Virus record (IMG/VR): IMGVR_UViG_3300022937_000008
Span: 1 to 64,000 of that record
Direction: 5' to 3' (one strand)
DNA length: 64,000 nt
From: a virus
In this document: positions 28,952 through 38,246 of the stretch, piece by piece
Numbering within the stretch: position 1 is the stretch's first letter
Layout: every line of letters begins with the position of its first letter
Notes under the pieces: model-generated
Told to the model about the DNA's origin: nothing
The model's input: only the letters and a program-made list of their open reading frames with translations
Databases searched by the model: none
Program-made: the position numbers and the translations under genes

Positions 28952-29871
28952 ATGTATCTCCTAATGAACTGCCAAGCTTCTCCCGACCTTAATTCATCGA
29001 AGTTCCAGTGGCTCATAGATATTTTTTCGACCCAATGCTGTCTTTCAAACATCTTCGGATCTTCTATTCTTTTTAAATTTGTATTGCATACACCATTTAC
29101 TTGACTATATGAAGGATCAGGATCAGTTACAAAAACAGGTACGCCTTCAATTAGACTTGCCACACTAGGAGAACTATTAAAAACTACTGTAGCCCATGCT
29201 GTTGCTAAATCTATTTTAATATTTGGTGCATTAGATAGACTTACATTTTTATGATTTATTCTTAGATATTGTCTAACTTTTTTATCACCGGGATGCGCTC
29301 TAACTACTATAGGACGGTCGGTAAAATTTTTAATAGTTAAAATAGTTTTATCTAACCACTCTTGTACAGGCATTCCCTTCATACTCCAACCGCCATTACG
29401 CTGTAAACATAATAAAATATGTCGACCTGTTTTACGATAATCTTTTAAACTTAAATTTAAATTTTTACTAATTTTTTGCCAGCGTATTGGATCTATATCA
29501 GTATCAAAATAGAATCCTGTATTAGGAAACACTCCGTCAAAACTATATCTTAAATATCTTTTTGTGTTTCCTGGATCTGCATAAAGGAACAAATTACTAT
29601 CTACAATAAGACTACGTTTGCCGACAGCTTTTTGCTTTTCCACAGCATTCTTCCTCAACATTAAATGAGGCGCAGACTTTCCGTGTTCATGAACAAAACC
29701 TTGTATAAATGCAACATCGCAATCAAGCAACGACATTTCTTTATGAGCAATGCCTGTATCTCCAGAAGCATTTACACCTGCAATAAAGTTATCAAGAATT
29801 AGTGGTTTTTCTGGATTATTATTACTAGGCGGAATTCCCCTGTAGTATGCAACTGCTGTTAGATTAGACAT
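28948..29871 (-). CDS. GT-B-like glycosyltransferase, paralog 3
   Basis: VDSN, ILLCLQ, RAHP, VFNSS, GVPVF, R..W..SHWNFDEL.SG. Confidence 0.65.
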   Translation of the reverse strand: MSNLTAVAYYRGIPPSNNNPEKPLILDNFIAGVNASGDTGIAHKEMSLLDCDVAFIQGFVHEHGKSAPHLMLRKNAVEKQKAVGKRSLIVDSNLFLYADPGNTKRYLRYSFDGVFPNTGFYFDTDIDPIRWQKISKNLNLSLKDYRKTGRHILLCLQRNGGWSMKGMPVQEWLDKTILTIKNFTDRPIVVRAHPGDKKVRQYLRINHKNVSLSNAPNIKIDLATAWATVVFNSSPSVASLIEGVPVFVTDPDPSYSQVNGVCNTNLKRIEDPKMFERQHWVEKISMSHWNFDELRSGEAWQFIRRYI

Positions 29872-30967
29872 GATATTTCTTCACTAATTTAATTGCAGTT
29901 CCGCTAAGTAATTCTTCTTTTGTAAACTGAGAATAACTTAACATACATAACCAGCTTCCTAAGTTTCCGTAGAACAAGTCATTAACTTCAGAAAGTTTAC
30001 TTTTTGTTACAGGATTAGTTATATGTCTATCTAAAGTAATAGCAGGTATACCAGCCCATATTGATTCAGTTGCTGCATTAGAATTAATACTTACTACACA
30101 GTAATAATTGTCATCAAGCAATTCTTGATGTAAATTAGTTCTTTCACGTTTAGGTGCTTTTTCTCTAAATTTAATTTTTTTATCTGTATATTGTCTTAAT
30201 TCTTTTTCAACATCGTACTTCCATGTTTTAAGGTCACAATGAAATATACTTGCTGCAAAAGGACCGGGTTCGATAACATAAATTATGTCGCCATCTTTTC
30301 TCCATGGCTTAGGAAATTCTTTAAAATTTCCTAATCTATCTGCAGGTGCATCAAAAAACTTGCCGTAGTGTAAATGATTTCTAACTATTCTATGCCATTT
30401 TTTATTTGGTTCTGTAAAGTTTGTATAACCACTATCAATGAACCACATAGGATAGTTTTTATCGATCTTAGTAACTAGTAATTCTTCATTACCTACAGTA
30501 TTTCTAATTAAACAATCTTCTTCATAGTTATTGAATTCTTTTCTGCGAACCATTTGTGCAGAACGATCAATAGTTAGTCCGGTACCTTTTACAAAGTTTT
30601 TATATTTAGATTTTTTATATAAAGAAAGCAATTCATCTTTGCCTATCTTTTTTATAAAATATTCAATGTTTTTATGAATCTTATCAAAATATGCTGCATA
30701 TACATTATGCTTCTCTGCATTAATGATACTGATCCATTCATCTAAATCTCTTCTTACGGCTTTAAACAGTTTATCCTTAAATTTTTTCTTTTCTTCATCT
30801 TTAAGTTCTCTGTCAGGATCAGACCATTTAGATTTTTTACTTAACCAGTCGTTGACATACATCGCGAGCCACTTTTCATTAAAAGGAATTTCGTGTAGCT
30901 CTTTCGGAACAGGCATACAGGATAATAAAAAATTTGCAAGTTCCTTGTCATTGATTAATAATTTCAT
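29864..30967 (-). CDS. GT-B-like glycosyltransferase, paralog 4
   Basis: IDSGY, WHRIV, REK, INSNAA, GIPA, LSYSQFT.EEL.SG. Confidence 0.65.
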   Translation of the reverse strand: MKLLINDKELANFLLSCMPVPKELHEIPFNEKWLAMYVNDWLSKKSKWSDPDRELKDEEKKKFKDKLFKAVRRDLDEWISIINAEKHNVYAAYFDKIHKNIEYFIKKIGKDELLSLYKKSKYKNFVKGTGLTIDRSAQMVRRKEFNNYEEDCLIRNTVGNEELLVTKIDKNYPMWFIDSGYTNFTEPNKKWHRIVRNHLHYGKFFDAPADRLGNFKEFPKPWRKDGDIIYVIEPGPFAASIFHCDLKTWKYDVEKELRQYTDKKIKFREKAPKRERTNLHQELLDDNYYCVVSINSNAATESIWAGIPAITLDRHITNPVTKSKLSEVNDLFYGNLGSWLCMLSYSQFTKEELLSGTAIKLVKKYHV

Positions 30968-31746
30968 TGGTACCTCTCTACTAGTTTATATGCCTTGCCA
31001 TCTAGTATTTCAGGAACTGTAAATTGACTATATGCAAGTGAATGACAATGTGTAAGTATTGTATCTAAATTAGGTTTGTATGGATTAGAAAGTTGGCTTA
31101 AATCACTACTGGATAACGGGCCGCCTGCACTAGGAACTGATACAAATGCGGGAACACCGTACAATACAGATTCTAATGCTGCCATACTATTCATTGCCAC
31201 CGTAGCATAAACACCACTATCAAATGCATCATATATAGAATATTCTTTGTTTCGATATTGTCTACTACCTTTAATTCTAACTTCAATAGGTAAATCGCAA
31301 TATTTTTTAATTTGTTTTTTAGTTTTTTGTACCCATCCATTATAATCAATATTATACCAAATACACGCTTTAGGATTAGGCATTACTAATAGTATTTTTT
31401 TATCGTAGTTTTTCCAACCCTTCCATTCTAAGCGAGGATCATCTTTGACCATTTGATTCCATCTATCTGAAGGTACACCTGGAATAAGTTTTGAAAGTTG
31501 GTTTTCGTTTTTAACAACTCTATGCCATTTCTTTTGTCCTTTGCCATTGCCAGGACTAGGAAAGTTTCCAAAGTATCCTGTATCGATATACCAATAATCT
31601 CTACCTATAGCGATACAGCGATTAGCGTGATCTTTTTTGATTACTCCTCTAATAACTTGAGGCTTAGTTGTATCTTGGCTATCGAGAGTAAGCCTGCCTT
31701 TGCTTCCTCTAACAAGACACTCTTCTAATGAGATGTTTTCATCCAT
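30964..31746 (-). CDS. GT-B-like glycosyltransferase, paralog 5
   Basis: IDTGYF, WHRVVKN, NSMAA, GVPAF, LAYSQFT..EI..G. Confidence 0.65.
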   Translation of the reverse strand: MDENISLEECLVRGSKGRLTLDSQDTTKPQVIRGVIKKDHANRCIAIGRDYWYIDTGYFGNFPSPGNGKGQKKWHRVVKNENQLSKLIPGVPSDRWNQMVKDDPRLEWKGWKNYDKKILLVMPNPKACIWYNIDYNGWVQKTKKQIKKYCDLPIEVRIKGSRQYRNKEYSIYDAFDSGVYATVAMNSMAALESVLYGVPAFVSVPSAGGPLSSSDLSQLSNPYKPNLDTILTHCHSLAYSQFTVPEILDGKAYKLVERYQ

Positions 31747-32419
31747 TCATCATTTCCTGTAATTCAGTTTTCCATAAATCTGAAAATTCACAATATCTAT
31801 AGTTTTCAAACCAAGGACCGCCTTCTGTGTAGTGTATTAGTTTAGGAGTTTCAATATCATTGTATACGCCAACAAGATAATTCCATGTATGATTTAGTTC
31901 ACCAATTTCTTCATCTTTTAACCAACTAAATCTATGAAGATATTTTCCTGTTGTTTTTTCATCATTTACTAAATCTGTTGTTACTATCTTATTGCTTGGA
32001 TGTCCGCAGTTCCATAATACAACACTCGACCAGTTCTTTCGTGGATACACAGTTTGTTTTTGTCCATCCATCTTAAATCCTTCTTCAACTTTGTAATCGT
32101 GTTGTACACACATAACTGCATATTTGTCATCTGCTTGATCAAACAATTCTTTAATGTCTGTTGTAAGAATCATATCACAATCCATAAACAATGCCCACCC
32201 ATTAAAGTTAGCAAGTTCTGGAATAAGAAATCTAGTGAATGTAAATTCTGTTGATGCTAGTTTATCAACAGGGCGGGTATACCATCCTGCTTCTCTTAAT
32301 TCGTTTTGTTTTAGCGGGTGTACTTCCGCATTAGGTTGTCTGCTTACAATACTGTGTTTGCATACCTGGTACGCAATATCTTCTCTAGTATCGTAGCCGA
32401 CATATACTTTTAGTTCCAT
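31739..32419 (-). CDS. GT8-like glycosyltransferase (CDI-like)
   Basis: VYVGYD.RE, STEFTFTRF, FMDCDM, YPRKNWSS, WN.LVG, IHYTEGGPW; GGAGG SD gives start 32419. Confidence 0.85.
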   Translation of the reverse strand: MELKVYVGYDTREDIAYQVCKHSIVSRQPNAEVHPLKQNELREAGWYTRPVDKLASTEFTFTRFLIPELANFNGWALFMDCDMILTTDIKELFDQADDKYAVMCVQHDYKVEEGFKMDGQKQTVYPRKNWSSVVLWNCGHPSNKIVTTDLVNDEKTTGKYLHRFSWLKDEEIGELNHTWNYLVGVYNDIETPKLIHYTEGGPWFENYRYCEFSDLWKTELQEMMNG

Positions 32420-33216
32420 TGTTCCTCCAACATCCTTTTGGCTTTGCCGGTTCTTAGTTCGCTTACATGGTATTGACCATATGATAGATGGCAACCCCAT
32501 TTAAATACTTCATCCGTGTCCGGATAATATGGTGTTTCTATTTTAGTTATGTCATTACAACCGATCGCAGCAGCAGCACTAGTAGGTGCTAAAGGAAACA
32601 CCGGTATACCATGAAATACAGCTTCGACTGCTGCATTACTGTTATACGTAACTAAAGCAAATACATCCTTGTTTAATGCTTCTTCTAACGTATCAGTTAA
32701 ACGATTAATTCTTAACTTATCTCTTTGCCTAACTTCGATTGGTCTGTCTGTATAACTCTTTAATGTGTTAACAGTTTTTGAAATCCAATCATCTAAATCC
32801 TGTCCGTAAAATTTCATAGGCTTTTCGTCAGGTGCAGCAATTAAAATTTTTCTGCCTCCCTTTTTCATTTTATTAATCTTTTTGTTAAACTGTTTAAATC
32901 TATCACTCGGCCTATCAATAATTTTTGAATGTTGAAGATCATTCTTTACAATTCTGTGCCAGTATTTCCATCCGTTAGGATTAGTAACCGAAGGTTCATT
33001 TCCAAAATATCCTGTGTCCATAAAGTAAAAGTTTCGATTGTCTTCCCAGCATCGATGTATAACTTTTTTCTTTAAAATTCCTCTTAAAACAATAGGATCT
33101 TCAGAAGCATCGTAATCAAAATCTGCACTGTCGATAGGATCTACTTTACATCCTCTGGCAAATTCGTTAATGTACGGGTCTTCTAATCCTTTGCTTAAAA
33201 AAATCCAATTACTCAT
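32410..33216 (-). CDS. GT-B-like glycosyltransferase, paralog 6
   Basis: MDTGYF, WHRIVKN, YNSNAA, GIPVF, LSYGQY..EL..G. Confidence 0.65.
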   Translation of the reverse strand: MSNWIFLSKGLEDPYINEFARGCKVDPIDSADFDYDASEDPIVLRGILKKKVIHRCWEDNRNFYFMDTGYFGNEPSVTNPNGWKYWHRIVKNDLQHSKIIDRPSDRFKQFNKKINKMKKGGRKILIAAPDEKPMKFYGQDLDDWISKTVNTLKSYTDRPIEVRQRDKLRINRLTDTLEEALNKDVFALVTYNSNAAVEAVFHGIPVFPLAPTSAAAAIGCNDITKIETPYYPDTDEVFKWGCHLSYGQYHVSELRTGKAKRMLEEQWN

Positions 33217-33986
33217 TTTCTCTCAATATCTTCCTCGACACAATCTTCCCCGTATTGTATTTCAACAATACGTAATGGTGTATCGTGTTCGTTTGATAGT
33301 TGATGCCATTCGTTTACTGGAATATGTAAACTTTGGTGTTGTTCAAAAACACCTCTTAATTCATAATCGGTTGCTCGATTAATTGTGTAAACTGTTGCCG
33401 TTCCTTCCGCTACAAACCAGTGTTCACTACGCTTTTGATGTCTTTGCATAGATAACCTTTTACCTGGTTCTACAGTTAATTCTTTTACTTTGGTATGACT
33501 ACCGTACTCATGAATCACTCTATAGTAACCCCATTCTCTTTTTGTTTTTGGTGCTTTCCATTCTTCAAGTATCCAACTACTCGAATTCATTTTGTTCTCA
33601 CCACCAACACCAAATTTAAATCTTACATTTGGCTGGTCTTTGTAAAACTCCATTTCTGGAATATTTTCTGATGTTCGATCTCCACCGTTTGCAAAAATAA
33701 TTTGGGTATTTGAAGATGTTGTTGCCATTGTTTTGTATATAGCGCCAGTAGCACTACCGTCACTGTCGTCAAATGAAATAACTTTGTCTACTACACTTAA
33801 TTCTTTTATAATAGCGACTCTTTCTGCCATAGGCATAAAAGGACGACCTTTTTTATTAGTAAGCCATTCATCAGAATTTAAACCTACCCAAAGTTCGTCA
33901 CCTAGTTTCTTCGCTGCTTTAAAATATTCGATATGCCCTGAATGTAATGGATCAAAACCTCCAGTAACTAATACAATTGTTTTCAT
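33213..33986 (-). CDS. cytidylyltransferase / mannose-6-phosphate-isomerase-type cupin fusion
   Basis: TGGFDPLHSGH, NGGDR, SSS; then REWG, LSMQRH..RSEHW, EIQYG..EEDIER. Confidence 0.9.
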   Translation of the reverse strand: MKTIVLVTGGFDPLHSGHIEYFKAAKKLGDELWVGLNSDEWLTNKKGRPFMPMAERVAIIKELSVVDKVISFDDSDGSATGAIYKTMATTSSNTQIIFANGGDRTSENIPEMEFYKDQPNVRFKFGVGGENKMNSSSWILEEWKAPKTKREWGYYRVIHEYGSHTKVKELTVEPGKRLSMQRHQKRSEHWFVAEGTATVYTINRATDYELRGVFEQHQSLHIPVNEWHQLSNEHDTPLRIVEIQYGEDCVEEDIERK

Positions 33987-34063
33987 GTTATAACCTTTGA
34001 AATGCTAGTAATATTTATGTGCGTAGTTAATGCGATAAATATTAAAATGGCAGGAAATTTCAA

Positions 34064-34513
34064 ATGAAAATATTAATATGCGGGTTACCCGGAAGTGGAA
34101 AAACAACTTTGGCAAAACCATTTGCTGAATTAATAGGCGGAATACACATTAATGCTGATCAAGTTAGAGAGCATTATAAAGATTGGGATTTTAGTTTGGA
34201 AGGTAGAATTAGGCAAGCACAACGTATGCGTCATTTAGCAGATGGCATTGTTATGGCAGGTAAAATTGCTGTTGCAGATTTTGTTTGTCCTACGAAAGAT
34301 GCAAGATCAGAGTTTGATGCAGATTATACAATCTGGATGGATACTATCAAAGAAGGTCGATATGATGATACTAATAAAATGTTTGTTCCATTAGAGAAAG
34401 GTGAATACAACTATCATGTTTCTCAATGGTTCGATGATACTCATCAACAACTATTAAAAGTAGTAACTAACTACATTAATAACAAAAATGGAAAACATAC
34501 AGAGAGGTTATAA
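34064..34513 (+). CDS. cysC: adenylyl-sulfate kinase-like P-loop kinase
   Basis: GLPGSGKTT, NADQVR, DFS.EGR.RQ, DFVCP. Confidence 0.75.
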   Translation: MKILICGLPGSGKTTLAKPFAELIGGIHINADQVREHYKDWDFSLEGRIRQAQRMRHLADGIVMAGKIAVADFVCPTKDARSEFDADYTIWMDTIKEGRYDDTNKMFVPLEKGEYNYHVSQWFDDTHQQLLKVVTNYINNKNGKHTERL

Positions 34514-34902
34514 TGTTTGATTTAAAAAAGCCTACAGTGCAGTTATTAGGAAGATGGCAGCCTTGGCATAAAGGACACACTGAATTATTTAGAAAGGCTC
34601 TAGCAAAAACAGGCCAAGTTTGTGTAATGGTCAGAGATGTACACGGTGTTGATGCTGGTATGGGAAATGATGACAATCCGTTCGAACATACCGAAGTTGT
34701 AATTAATATTCAAGCCGCATTACTTGCAGAAGGATATACACACGGTGTAGAATATATTCTAGTTCAAGTACCAAATATAGTTGATATTAGTTATGGAAGA
34801 GGAGTAGGTTATACATTTACTCAACACGATTTAGGTGAAGACATACATAATATCAGCGCAACAGACATACGTGCAGAAATGAGGTCTCAAGGCAAACTTT
34901 AA
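34513..34902 (+). CDS. HxGH nucleotidyltransferase (cytidylyltransferase-like)
   Basis: GRWQPWHKGH, DNPF, ISATDIR. Confidence 0.8.
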   Translation: MFDLKKPTVQLLGRWQPWHKGHTELFRKALAKTGQVCVMVRDVHGVDAGMGNDDNPFEHTEVVINIQAALLAEGYTHGVEYILVQVPNIVDISYGRGVGYTFTQHDLGEDIHNISATDIRAEMRSQGKL

Positions 34903-35435
34903 TGGCAATACTTGTTAAAGAACCTAAAAGATTCACATACATACACATTCCTAAAACTGCTGGTACAAGTGTTACAAATGCGTTATTATCTATAGGTGGT
35001 GAACTAATTGGACGTAAACATTCTCCTAGATCTGTATTAAAAGAAGATTTAGGTTTTGTATTCACTATAGTTAGAAACCCGTGGGAAAGAATTGTTAGTG
35101 GTTGGACGCACGATAAAAAAGCATCATGGCGTAGCAAATATCCAATGCTAGAAAAAGAGTTTAACGATGGTATATATGAATATTTGGAAGTAAGAAAAAC
35201 TTTAAAACATTCACAATTAAATTATATCAATAAAGATGATATGATTTTAAGATACGAAAATCTAAATGAAGATTGGCATCATCTACGAAATATCTTATTT
35301 GTTGAGATGCCAGACCTTCCTAGATTAGAAGTAGGATCACATAATCATTATAGAGATTATTATAATCAAAAAACTAAAGATTATGTTTACCAAAAATATA
35401 AAATTGAAATTGATACTTTAGGGTATGAATTTTAA
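34902..35435 (+). CDS. sulfotransferase (Sulfotransfer_2 family)
   Basis: 5'PSB YIHIPKTAGTS, 3'PB VRNPWERIVS, RYENL, C-terminal GYEF. Confidence 0.88.
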   Translation: MAILVKEPKRFTYIHIPKTAGTSVTNALLSIGGELIGRKHSPRSVLKEDLGFVFTIVRNPWERIVSGWTHDKKASWRSKYPMLEKEFNDGIYEYLEVRKTLKHSQLNYINKDDMILRYENLNEDWHHLRNILFVEMPDLPRLEVGSHNHYRDYYNQKTKDYVYQKYKIEIDTLGYEF

Positions 35436-35896
35436 AGTGTTGCATCATCAAGGCCTGCTGTTCTTAACTTAACAATGTTTGATAACTGCCATTGTTTAAT
35501 GTCTAAGCCTTTAATAATACCTAACCACTTATTTCTTAACAAAGCAAATTCGTTGATAATTTTTTCAAAATCAACAACATCGGCTTCGCCGTCTACGAAC
35601 TTCTCAGCATCTCTAGAACTTAATGCACGTTGATAGTTTTCAACATACTTTCTAAAGTGAGTAGAACGTAGTCGACGTAGCTCAATATTTAAATATTCAA
35701 GAATTGCTTCTATTTCTTGTAGTTGATTAAAACGAGTTTCAACAATAGCAGGCATTGTTGCAGAAGCTGTTTCAATTCTGCCTTTGATGCCTGTTTCTTT
35801 TTTTGCTTCTAATAGTTCCGATTCGTAATAAGCTACTGCGTCAGGAATATTAGAAATGTTCTTAGATACTTTATCGTACCAATTCATTAGTCCCAC
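35432..35896 (-). CDS. uvsY: UvsY-like recombination mediator
   Basis: Helical ~150 aa, KFVDGE..V, KGLDIKQWQL; next to uvsX. Confidence 0.75.
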   Translation of the reverse strand: MGLMNWYDKVSKNISNIPDAVAYYESELLEAKKETGIKGRIETASATMPAIVETRFNQLQEIEAILEYLNIELRRLRSTHFRKYVENYQRALSSRDAEKFVDGEADVVDFEKIINEFALLRNKWLGIIKGLDIKQWQLSNIVKLRTAGLDDATL

Positions 35897-36123
35897 TCGT
35901 CATTATCATCAGGTTCATCATATGAGTCTTCATCGATAACATATTCAACTGCTTCGTCGAGATATGTGTCAATGCCAAATAACCCCTCAATAACTTGTTC
36001 GCTCACACCATAGTCTAACAGTGTATTAATATACTCTTTTGCTAAATCACGTTTTTTGTTTTCAGCAATATGTTCAGACATCATGTTCCAAATATCAGCG
36101 ATTAAATCTTGATTCATATTCAT
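35887..36123 (-). CDS. acidic hypothetical protein
   Basis: Lies between uvsX and uvsY. Confidence 0.7.
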   Translation of the reverse strand: MNMNQDLIADIWNMMSEHIAENKKRDLAKEYINTLLDYGVSEQVIEGLFGIDTYLDEAVEYVIDEDSYDEPDDNDEWD

Positions 36124-37206
36124 TTATTCTCCACTAGTTGCTACTTCAGCCTCCTTGCTAGTTTCCTCAACAACTTCTTCTTGATCAATGAGTTCTGGTT
36201 TAGCATTAAGGTCTGAGATTATCATATCTAATTTATCTCCAACCCACGCTTTACGATACTCAATATGGTCATTGCCTGCAAGGTCAGTGTATTTAAGTCT
36301 ATTGCCTTCTTTTTTCAAAATACCTTTACCTTCGAATAAATCAACCAGTCCTGAATAAGGATCCATTCCTGTTTCATATGGAATCTTAACCTGTACTGCT
36401 TCAAACGGTTTTGCGTAACGAGTTTTCATTACTTTACAAGCCGCTCTAATACCACGTACATCAGTTACTTTGTTACCGTCTTCATCTTCTTTCAGTTTCA
36501 ATTTACGCATTGCTACTACAATTGAACTTGCATAGATAAAGCCTTGACCACCTGAGATTTTATCATCTGGATCAAACATATCTTGTGATGCATAAGTGTG
36601 ATTAGTTGCTACAAGTCCTACATTATGTGAACCAAACATATTAACCGAATTACGAACAAGTGCTGTTAGTGCTTTAGGCTTACGACCCATATCACCTTTT
36701 AAATCACCCTTGTCAAACTGATCAACATCTGTTGGAGTCAGTAGCATACCTAGTGAATCAATTACAAACAATACTTTCGGACGATCTTCTTCTGCCATTT
36801 CTCTATACTCTTTCATAAATTCTGAAATAGTTTTAGCGACATCGTCGATCATACTCATGTTAAGTTTAAGTAATTTTTCTTCACTTGTATCAACATTAAG
36901 TGCCTGCAACCATTGTTCGTCAAGTGCGTTCTCTGAGTCAATAAGAACTACAAAGATACCTTGATCTTGTGCTGCTTTAACAATATTTGCTGAACAGAAG
37001 TATGATTTACCACTACCTGATTCACCTGCAAATACAGTTACCTTTCCTAACGGAACACCTTTGTGAAAATCTCCACTGATCAAATAATTGAGTGCATAGT
37101 TACCTGTGCTAACCCAATCAGTGGGATCATTAAAACCAATACCAAGTCCGTCAATACTTTTAGTAAGGCTTTTTCTAAATTTACTAATATCAAATGGTTT
37201 TGCCAT
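36124..37206 (-). CDS. uvsX: UvsX/RecA-like recombinase
   Basis: STGNYALN, GESGSGKS, DSENA, IDSLG, TNH, SGG; AAGGAG SD before MAKPFD. Confidence 0.95.
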   Translation of the reverse strand: MAKPFDISKFRKSLTKSIDGLGIGFNDPTDWVSTGNYALNYLISGDFHKGVPLGKVTVFAGESGSGKSYFCSANIVKAAQDQGIFVVLIDSENALDEQWLQALNVDTSEEKLLKLNMSMIDDVAKTISEFMKEYREMAEEDRPKVLFVIDSLGMLLTPTDVDQFDKGDLKGDMGRKPKALTALVRNSVNMFGSHNVGLVATNHTYASQDMFDPDDKISGGQGFIYASSIVVAMRKLKLKEDEDGNKVTDVRGIRAACKVMKTRYAKPFEAVQVKIPYETGMDPYSGLVDLFEGKGILKKEGNRLKYTDLAGNDHIEYRKAWVGDKLDMIISDLNAKPELIDQEEVVEETSKEAEVATSGE

Positions 37207-37227
37207 GTTTATCTCCTTCCATATACT

Positions 37228-37252
37228 ATAGGGAGTGACTAGCACTCCCTAT
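37228..37252. terminator. stem-loop between gp32 and uvsX
   Basis: ATAGGGAGTG-ACTAG-CACTCCCTAT; no U-tract on the minus strand, so possibly a processing or attenuation site. Confidence 0.5.
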
Positions 37253-37262
37253 GTATTTTTTA

Positions 37263-38246
37263 TTAGCCTTGTTGTCTGTTACGAATCATTGCAAGAATAT
37301 CTTGCGCTCTATTTGCGCTGTCATTACCTGCTGTAGATTCTTCAGCCGCTGGTGCTGCTGTTTCAGTTACTGGCTCTGCCGCTGGAGTTGGAGTTGCTGC
37401 TGCCGGTGCAGATGGTGCTGCCTTACTTGTTACATTCGGATCACCTGTCTGCTGTGACATACCTGCTGGACGGAAGTATTGTCCCCAACGTTCCATATCA
37501 TATGCTTCACCGTCTACTGACGCTTCAAACATTTCTTTCATTACTTTAAGTTCAACTTCAGTTGGCTTCTTAGGTAAGAAGTCTGATAAGTTAAACAATC
37601 CATGACTATCAACTGCTGCTTGTTCTTCATCAGTTAATGATCTTTCTCTACGTGACCATTGTGATGTTGAGTAATCAGCATAGCCGCCTTTAGAAGTTTT
37701 CTTAATTCTAAAGTCTACGCCTTTTAGATAATCTGTTGGAAGTTCTTCCAACTCAGGATCCATTAAAGCACTTTTAATAATTTGGAAAATTTGTGGTCCA
37801 ATAATAAAACGTCTAATTGGATTATCTGGGGTAGTTTCTTCGTTTAGTGGATCATCTGAAACAAAGCCTTGGAAAATGTATGAACGCTTTTTCCAATACT
37901 TACGGCCCATATCTTCTAGTGACTTGTCTTTAAACCAGCCACGTACTTCAGATAGGATCGGACAAGTAGTACCGTCATTGTACATTTCCACGCATGGAAC
38001 CTGAACAATTGTTTGACGATTGTCTGACTCGCCTTTAACTCCCGCAAATGGAAGTTTGATCATTGCACGTTCAACCCAAAAGAATGTGTTGGCTGAGTTA
38101 CCATCTGGTAAGAACCTTACCACGGCTTCTTTGCCTTCTTGCATATTCCAATGTGGGTAAACTGCGTTATCGCCGCCACCTGTGTTTCCAGATGTACGTG
38201 TTTGAGCTTCTTGAAGTTTAGCTCGGATTTCTGCTAATGTTGCCAT
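37263..38246 (-). CDS. gp32: gp32-like single-stranded DNA-binding protein
   Basis: VRFLP, PC..CP, YWKKRSY, G.DFRIKK..KGGYADYSTS; Ala/Pro linker. Confidence 0.9.
   Translation of the reverse strand: MATLAEIRAKLQEAQTRTSGNTGGGDNAVYPHWNMQEGKEAVVRFLPDGNSANTFFWVERAMIKLPFAGVKGESDNRQTIVQVPCVEMYNDGTTCPILSEVRGWFKDKSLEDMGRKYWKKRSYIFQGFVSDDPLNEETTPDNPIRRFIIGPQIFQIIKSALMDPELEELPTDYLKGVDFRIKKTSKGGYADYSTSQWSRRERSLTDEEQAAVDSHGLFNLSDFLPKKPTEVELKVMKEMFEASVDGEAYDMERWGQYFRPAGMSQQTGDPNVTSKAAPSAPAAATPTPAAEPVTETAAPAAEESTAGNDSANRAQDILAMIRNRQQG

Follow-up and report, generated by a model that had tools for sequence, protein, structure and literature searches.

The viral DNA considered here is a stretch of 64,000 nucleotides (nt), referred to as the window, which covers positions 1 to 64,000 of IMG/VR record IMGVR_UViG_3300022937_000008. 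It contains an operon of three plus-strand genes which may together form a sulfation pathway. The first gene (34064-34513) is an open reading frame (ORF) encoding a P-loop kinase of 149 amino acids (aa) which resembles adenosine 5'-phosphosulfate (APS) kinases (PF01583) and has a shortened lid. The second (34513-34902) encodes an HxGH/ISAT nucleotidyltransferase of 129 aa with the signature GRWQPWHKGH; it is proposed below to be a minimal sulfate adenylyltransferase. The third (34902-35435) encodes a Sulfotransfer_2-type sulfotransferase of 177 aa (PF03567) with both motifs for binding 3'-phosphoadenosine 5'-phosphosulfate (PAPS). Both gene junctions read TAATG, with one base common to the stop and start codons (34511-34515 and 34900-34904), and a GAGAGG Shine-Dalgarno sequence precedes the 129-aa gene. 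The neighbours on both sides are all on the minus strand. An earlier note on this DNA, made from the letters alone, had described three coupled plus-strand genes running opposite to their neighbours; the ORFs, the overlaps and the minus-strand flanks agree with that description.

The kinase and the HxGH protein (hereafter also the transferase) form a conserved unit. Of the 147 loci compared, 80 are viral, 64 come from bacterial and archaeal genomes and two from isolated phages, and one is that of the window. By phmmer, the kinase gene lies directly upstream of the HxGH gene in 141 of them: the genes overlap in 106 loci, are at most 10 nt apart in four, 11-350 nt apart in 24 and further apart in one, and are fused in six. 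Three further marinimicrobial loci have a near-canonical APS kinase upstream, which was missed by phmmer and found with Pfam, bringing the count to 144 of 147. One locus begins at the transferase and the flank is missing from the sequence. In another (L140), the transferase is fused in reverse order to a canonical APS kinase (1.3e-39). In a third (L083), cysQ (TIGR01331, 267.6 bits against a cut-off of 228.8) overlaps the start of the transferase gene by 8 nt, and a kinase of the family type is found at another site in the genome. The earlier note had suggested asking whether the genes co-occur elsewhere; wherever the flank is available, the kinase and HxGH genes are, with hardly an exception, neighbours or fused.

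The three genes in the window are real genes; the 129-aa protein alone is matched by more than 7,900 protein clusters close to it in length. At least 4,908 longer clusters also match the transferase; nearly all are 245-290 aa long and carry PF01583, and are thus kinase-transferase fusions. A single profile, phrog_10255, covers both proteins. The pair is widespread in SAR11, SAR86, Marinimicrobia and marine viruses, and is not particular to the phage represented by the window. The gaps of 11-350 nt between kinase and transferase usually hold an 80-aa ORF; this encodes a predicted membrane protein of the DUF2061 family, and is seen at L006:4766-5005 and in about 15 other viral loci. At the cysQ locus (L083:1743-6036, a MarineAlpha5 metagenome-assembled genome), a gene resembling betaine-homocysteine methyltransferase and a gene for a 679-aa flavin oxidoreductase lie just 5' of the cysQ-transferase arrangement.

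The kinase is a member of the APS kinase family, as the earlier note had proposed. Its PF01583 match scores 34.3 bits against a gathering cut-off of 21.1, and covers only positions 5-91 of the 152 in the model. When a profile of 27 members of the kinase family was compared with the PDB, the top 25 matches were all APS kinases (best 5.6e-18). Shikimate and adenylate kinases were far weaker and NadR was not among the matches. The AAA_28 score is below cut-off. The TIGR00455 equivalog cut-off is also not reached (26.9 against 138.7 bits). Family invariants are the Walker A motif, the Asp-x-x-Arg of DGDxxR, the Arg of F/Y-S-x-E-G-R and the Pro of F-x-x-P. In the window, the corresponding motifs are GLPGSGKT, NADQVR (which keeps the second Asp and the Arg, the first Asp being replaced by Asn) and FVCP, which we take to have the usual roles of Walker A, DGDxxR and the FISP-type APS-binding loop; marinimicrobial orthologues have the canonical DGDDLR. 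The C-terminal lid is not matched: alignments to solved APS kinases stop at about residue 85 of 149, with a short, divergent tail beyond. Family membership and the conserved APS-binding residues suggest that the enzyme would phosphorylate APS to PAPS.

The 129-aa protein was described in the earlier note as NadM-like, and so it is. A profile of its family matches NadM and archaeal nicotinamide mononucleotide (NMN) adenylyltransferase (NMNAT) structures (2qjt, 5e-9; 1f9a, 1e-8) over residues 7-89 only. This homology covers the ATP-binding half; alignments stop at residues 75-89, ahead of the NMN-binding half. Curated NCBIfam cut-offs for NMNAT are not reached (28.3 against 127 bits and 24.7 against 181 bits), and the CTP_transf_like score of 18.9 bits is under its cut-off of 21. 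The protein contains GRWQPWHKGH (with the HKGH motif), DNPF and ISATDIR. Invariant across the family are GRWQPWH-GH, R41, N55-P56 of NP(F), G95-R96 in a YGRGVGY loop and ISAT..R; of these, R41, N55-P56 and G95-R96 are specific to the family. An AlphaFold2 (AF2) model (mean pLDDT 89) has the HxGH nucleotidylyltransferase fold. Structural neighbours by VIA-align are NMNAT (Z 10.6), PPAT (Z 10.3) and the ATP sulfurylase 1v47 (Z 8.5; root-mean-square deviation 3.5 over 118 residues). The H-x-x-H motif and IS(G)T..R helix of the Sat-type fold are both present, a feature common to the whole superfamily; the Q-x-R-N-P motif of Sat is absent. The ESM Atlas label reads only 'putative cytidylyltransferase'. 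A prediction of the kinase-transferase complex scored 0.00, and is not used as evidence either way. By sequence, then, the protein is NMNAT-like and not Sat-like. It appears as a divergent offshoot of the NMNAT branch, in the same superfamily as Sat and outside the Sat family.

The third protein matches Sulfotransfer_2 (PF03567) with 35.7 bits against a cut-off of 22 (1.4e-8) and phrog_3347 with 5e-14. It has a 5'-phosphosulfate loop (PKTAGTS) and a 3'-phosphate motif (RNPWERIVS). The Pfam match and the two PAPS-binding motifs confirm the earlier designation of this gene as a sulfotransferase.

Sulfotransferases of four Pfam families occur near the pair in independent lineages. Strict regular expressions for the sulfotransferase motifs recovered only the window and one other locus (L061), and an iterated hidden Markov model seeded on the window protein found seven loci; the Sulfotransfer_3, _4 and _5 neighbours were seen only with Pfam. 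Sulfotransfer_2 genes directly adjoin the pair in the window and in L020, L061, L129 and L139, and lie 1.3-1.8 kb away in L030 and L077. A Sulfotransfer_4 gene adjoins the pair in two viral loci (L015 and L017). A Sulfotransfer_3 gene adjoins it in one SAR86 locus (L110); judged from coordinates, 17 of the 42 SAR86 carriers sampled have this arrangement. At the capsule locus L141 of Marinimicrobia, which includes Wzi and Wza, a Sulfotransfer_5 gene is found about 3 kb upstream of the kinase. The question raised earlier, whether sulfotransferases stand beside the pair elsewhere, is thus answered in unrelated lineages: three families adjoin it and a fourth lies about 3 kb off. Among fragmentary viral records with the pair, 8 of 30 hold Sulfotransfer_2 and 3 of 30 hold Sulfotransfer_3/4-like genes, counts taken without a matched control set.

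Other neighbours differ between lineages. In SAR11, the pair is convergent to aprA-aprB and an aprM-like gene. A conserved 116-aa protein, for which no family match was found, is encoded between aprA and the transferase in a SAR11 single-cell genome (L088:6393-9885), and the layout is repeated in L085-L101; next come aprA, aprB and a gene for a membrane protein of the aprM-like (QmoC-like) type, all of them oriented convergently with the pair. In SAR86, a gene for a 367-aa protein ends exactly at the kinase start (L107:4495-5595 and 16 other loci). It occupies the slot held by the Sulfotransfer_3 gene in other SAR86 genomes, and has no Pfam, NCBIfam or PDB match. At L024:2772-6434, as in about 25 viral loci like it, the pair belongs to a gene block which is conserved among small marine phage contigs and includes a CTP_transf_3 cytidylyltransferase, a peptide deformylase, a helicase and a primase; for three further conserved proteins encoded there (155, 249 and 186 aa) there is no family match. 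Kinase-transferase fusions are found in Xylella phage Salvo (gp32, L001:4593-5339) and Stenotrophomonas phage DLP_6 (L002:5599-6330). Both are phages of plant-associated gammaproteobacteria, and the fusion lies among early or DNA-metabolism genes. The SAR11, SAR86, marinimicrobial and viral neighbourhoods inspected showed no NAD salvage genes. The links to aprBA, to cysQ and, by fusion, to canonical CysC place the HxGH protein in APS/PAPS metabolism.

Carrier genomes largely lack the standard enzymes of sulfate activation. Sat was found in none of 50 carrier genomes and true CysD in only three of the 50. In five test genomes, the only APS kinase match is the kinase of the pair, and AprB was not found in the SAR86 and Marinimicrobia carriers among them. 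Sulfotransferases are nevertheless encoded in all five and in 25 of 37 further carriers, every SAR86 genome among these included; SAR86 and Marinimicrobia carriers have one to four. The earlier suggestion of a pathway without a standard ATP sulfurylase is borne out to this extent. SAR11 and SAR86 have been described as lacking sulfate activation. For SAR11, Smith et al. (2016, PMC5069961) report that cysC and aprA are confined to one set of five strains among seven, and that both sat and cysDN are missing.

The transferase is associated with different partners in the two orders. Across 91 SAR86-order genomes, transferase against Sulfotransfer_3 gives the table 41/2/8/40 (Fisher p 3e-15). For transferase and AprB in the 121 genomes of the SAR11 order, the table is 95/4/4/18 (p 4e-14). 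Completeness of the genomes was required only to reach 80%, and the tables take no account of shared ancestry. One unpublished genome (G126), which has both genes, is counted in the SAR11 table; without it the first cell is 94. Thirteen SAR11 genomes have a sulfotransferase and no pair; of these, five encode CysNC-type APS kinases (frames of 613-639 aa) and two encode stand-alone canonical ones. No APS kinase of either type was found in the nine pair-less SAR11 genomes without a sulfotransferase. CysNC-type kinases and the pair are complementary in SAR11. One SAR86 genome (G298) retains a 27-residue remnant of the transferase (C1:33747-33827) and a Sulfotransfer_3 gene with in-frame stops (C1:93035-93668), which may reflect joint decay of supplier and user.

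These observations can be assembled into a pathway. The 129-aa protein would transfer AMP from ATP onto sulfate, giving APS and pyrophosphate. The 149-aa kinase would phosphorylate the 3'-OH of APS, giving PAPS. The 177-aa sulfotransferase would then transfer the sulfate group of PAPS to an acceptor; the most likely candidate is a sugar in the glycan made by the adjacent glycan island. In SAR11, the pair may also run in reverse, converting APS made by AprBA. ATP sulfurylation is thermodynamically uphill; this would account for a transferase that hardly ever occurs without the kinase and in many cases is fused to it. We give a probability of roughly 0.6 to the reading in which the three genes are a self-contained sulfation operon, where a minimal PAPS synthase of two proteins supplies a glycan sulfotransferase. 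We consider a broader proposal slightly more probable than not: the NMNAT-derived protein of about 130 aa would be a third, minimal class of sulfate adenylyltransferase and, with the lid-less APS kinase, would serve SAR11, SAR86, Marinimicrobia and many marine phages as PAPS synthase. It would also be the 'missing Sat' which completes AprBA-dependent sulfite oxidation in SAR11. Comparative genomics supports a sulfate-activating role with evidence that is circumstantial but convergent. The suggestion in the earlier note of a minimal, non-orthologous ATP sulfurylase is thus supported by the comparative genomics; sulfate adenylyl transfer itself we infer from genomic context. In a partial literature search, no published proposal of this enzyme was found.

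Several observations weigh against a sulfate adenylyltransferase. The only significant relatives of the 129-aa protein with known function are NMN adenylyltransferases, and Foldseek and VIA-align do not separate NMNAT, PPAT and ATP sulfurylase for the model. The protein has no PF01747 match. Its hhalign alignment to five Sat catalytic domains is off register and not significant (probability 40%), and the GRDHAG sulfate-binding loop of Sat is absent. The presence of the pair and of Sulfotransfer_3 are uncorrelated in SAR11 (60 of 99 genomes with the pair against 13 of 22 without; odds ratio 1.07), and shared ancestry may contribute to the associations tabulated above. No sulfotransferase lies near the fusion in the Xylella and Stenotrophomonas phages; DLP_6 has an annotated sulfotransferase about 90 kb from it. 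Two SAR11 genomes (G160 and G163) have a canonical APS kinase and AprB without the transferase, and AprBA could therefore supply APS there. Their stand-alone canonical APS kinases (L157 in G160, L156 in G163) lie inside loci of glycosyltransferase and ABC-transporter genes.

The strongest alternative, which we consider unlikely, starts from APS made elsewhere. The kinase would be an APS kinase and the sulfotransferase would use PAPS, with the APS coming from the host (through CysDN, Sat, or AprBA acting on sulfite); the HxGH protein would do some other adenylyl transfer, such as APS:phosphate, or handle APS or 3'-phosphoadenosine 5'-phosphate. SAR11 carriers do have AprBA, which is able to make APS from sulfite and AMP, and G160 and G163 manage without the transferase. 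Ralstonia phage RsoM2USA carries the kinase alone, the next gene not being a transferase, and the coupling to cysQ in L083 is compatible with a product-side role too. However, the SAR86 and Marinimicrobia carriers without AprB, Sat or CysD would have no other source of APS for the kinase and their sulfotransferases. HxGH enzymes typically move a nucleotidyl group from a nucleoside triphosphate to an acceptor, and strict pairing with the kinase and fusion in both orders would be expected of enzymes that catalyse consecutive steps.

In two other explanations the pair does not supply PAPS. The pair could make another 3'-phospho-adenylylated or nucleotide-activated compound (from an oxyanion, a sugar phosphate or an alcohol phosphate) for the glycan island. 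The operon does adjoin that island, with its other HxGH gene, the cytidylyltransferase-cupin; L024-type viral loci have a CTP_transf_3 gene nearby; and the family-specific residues have no known counterpart. Such a product is improbable: the kinase retains conserved APS-binding residues, the pair is found again and again with sulfotransferases, aprBA and cysQ, and its distribution in SAR11 complements that of CysNC. Least probable of all is a split NadR-like pair for salvage of nicotinamide adenine dinucleotide (NAD), in which the kinase would act on nicotinamide riboside, the HxGH protein would be a small NMN adenylyltransferase, NAD would be restored during infection and the sulfotransferase would be an unrelated neighbour. 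NAD salvage genes are known from phages, the transferase is matched best by NadM and archaeal NMNAT in both sequence and fold, and some family members are annotated as NMNAT by JGI. Against this, the kinase profile matches APS kinases (1e-18 to 1e-7) with NadR absent and AAA_28 below cut-off, and the NMNAT match ends at residue 89, before the NMN-binding half. The recurrent neighbours of the pair are sulfotransferases, aprBA, cysQ and capsule genes, with no NAD gene seen beside it, and the fusion partner in L140 is a canonical CysC. Kinase profile and gene contexts together led us to set the NadR-like reading aside.

In the window, the operon adjoins a glycan island of 17 kb. The minus-strand genes on one side (29864-33986) are glycosyltransferase-like genes and a gene (33213-33986) for an RfaE-domain-II-like HxGH cytidylyl/adenylyltransferase fused to a mannose-6-phosphate-isomerase-type cupin. 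This last gene is divergent from the operon, and places a second HxGH enzyme less than 100 nt from it. On the other side (35432-38246), the minus-strand genes include a 154-aa gene, UvsX and gp32. The divergent spacer is 77 nt long and has the heptamer ATAAATA on each strand. The plus-strand copy (34035-34041) resembles a late promoter and lies 22 nt 5' of the kinase ATG, with an AGGA ribosome-binding site at 34052-34055 on the same strand. The minus-strand copy (34012-34018) faces the divergent gene. The plus-strand copy matches seven of the eight bases of TATAAATA and is therefore short of the full consensus; the complete TATAAATA was not found in the spacer. Both motifs are depleted in the window (19 copies of the heptamer against 31.7 expected, and three of the octamer against 8.6). 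The earlier note had placed the operon behind a late promoter. Given the 7/8 match and the depletion, a T4-type late promoter is only plausible, and is best described as putative.

A megablast search of the region against phage records gave no match. The UvsX of the window most resembles proteins of jumbo phages, among them Atu_ph07, Phosso and Vibrio 2.275.O, and the CheckV completeness of the 114-kb record is 32%; the source genome is therefore probably that of a marine jumbo myovirus.

Few bacteria in the ocean are as abundant as SAR11 and SAR86. Their genomes, and those of the phages around them, encode many sulfotransferases despite the described gap in sulfate activation. If the HxGH protein is an ATP sulfurylase, these cells and viruses can make PAPS from the sulfate in seawater, and phage and host probably contend over sulfated surface glycans. 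The AprBA route of sulfite oxidation in SAR11 would gain its last step, and the textbook pathway would gain a new, minimal class of enzyme.

The proposed system can be compared with several known ones. The HxGH protein resembles NadM and archaeal NMNAT (1f9a, 2qjt) in the GR(F/W)QP(F/W)HxGH motif, the NPF motif and the S-x-T-x-I-R helix. It differs in that its second half is unaligned, it is about 40 residues shorter and it has its own invariant residues R41 and R96; its genomic context is one of sulfur and sulfation, unlike the NAD context of NMNAT. The kinase shares with CysC (PF01583, TIGR00455) the P-loop, the Asp-x-x-Arg of DGDxxR, the F/Y-S-x-E-x-R motif and a loop like F-I-S-P, and the marinimicrobial members are near canonical. 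The window kinase departs from CysC by having Asn for the first Asp of DGD and a shortened C-terminal lid, and by missing the TIGR00455 cut-off. CysDN, the GTP-coupled ATP sulfurylase, holds the same place in the pathway as that proposed for the pair, and has a complementary distribution in SAR11. However, the folds of CysDN (a PAPS-reductase-like ATP pyrophosphatase and a GTPase) are unrelated, and the pair has no GTPase. The Sat transferase and the HxGH protein both have the HxxH/HxGH nucleotidylyltransferase fold and an IS(G/A)T..R motif; the latter is 112-137 aa long against about 350-400 aa for Sat, and has no PUA-like domain, GRDHAG loop or PF01747 match. Bifunctional PAPS synthases (metazoan PAPSS1/2, and bacterial and fungal Sat-APS kinase fusions such as Aquifex 2gks) unite two sulfate-activation activities in one chain, as is proposed for the pair in one chain or operon. 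Compared with the kinase of PAPS synthase, the kinase described here is without most of the lid. The natural fusions share the order of PAPSS, with the kinase N-terminal and the transferase C-terminal; the L140 fusion has the opposite order, as in Aquifex 2gks.

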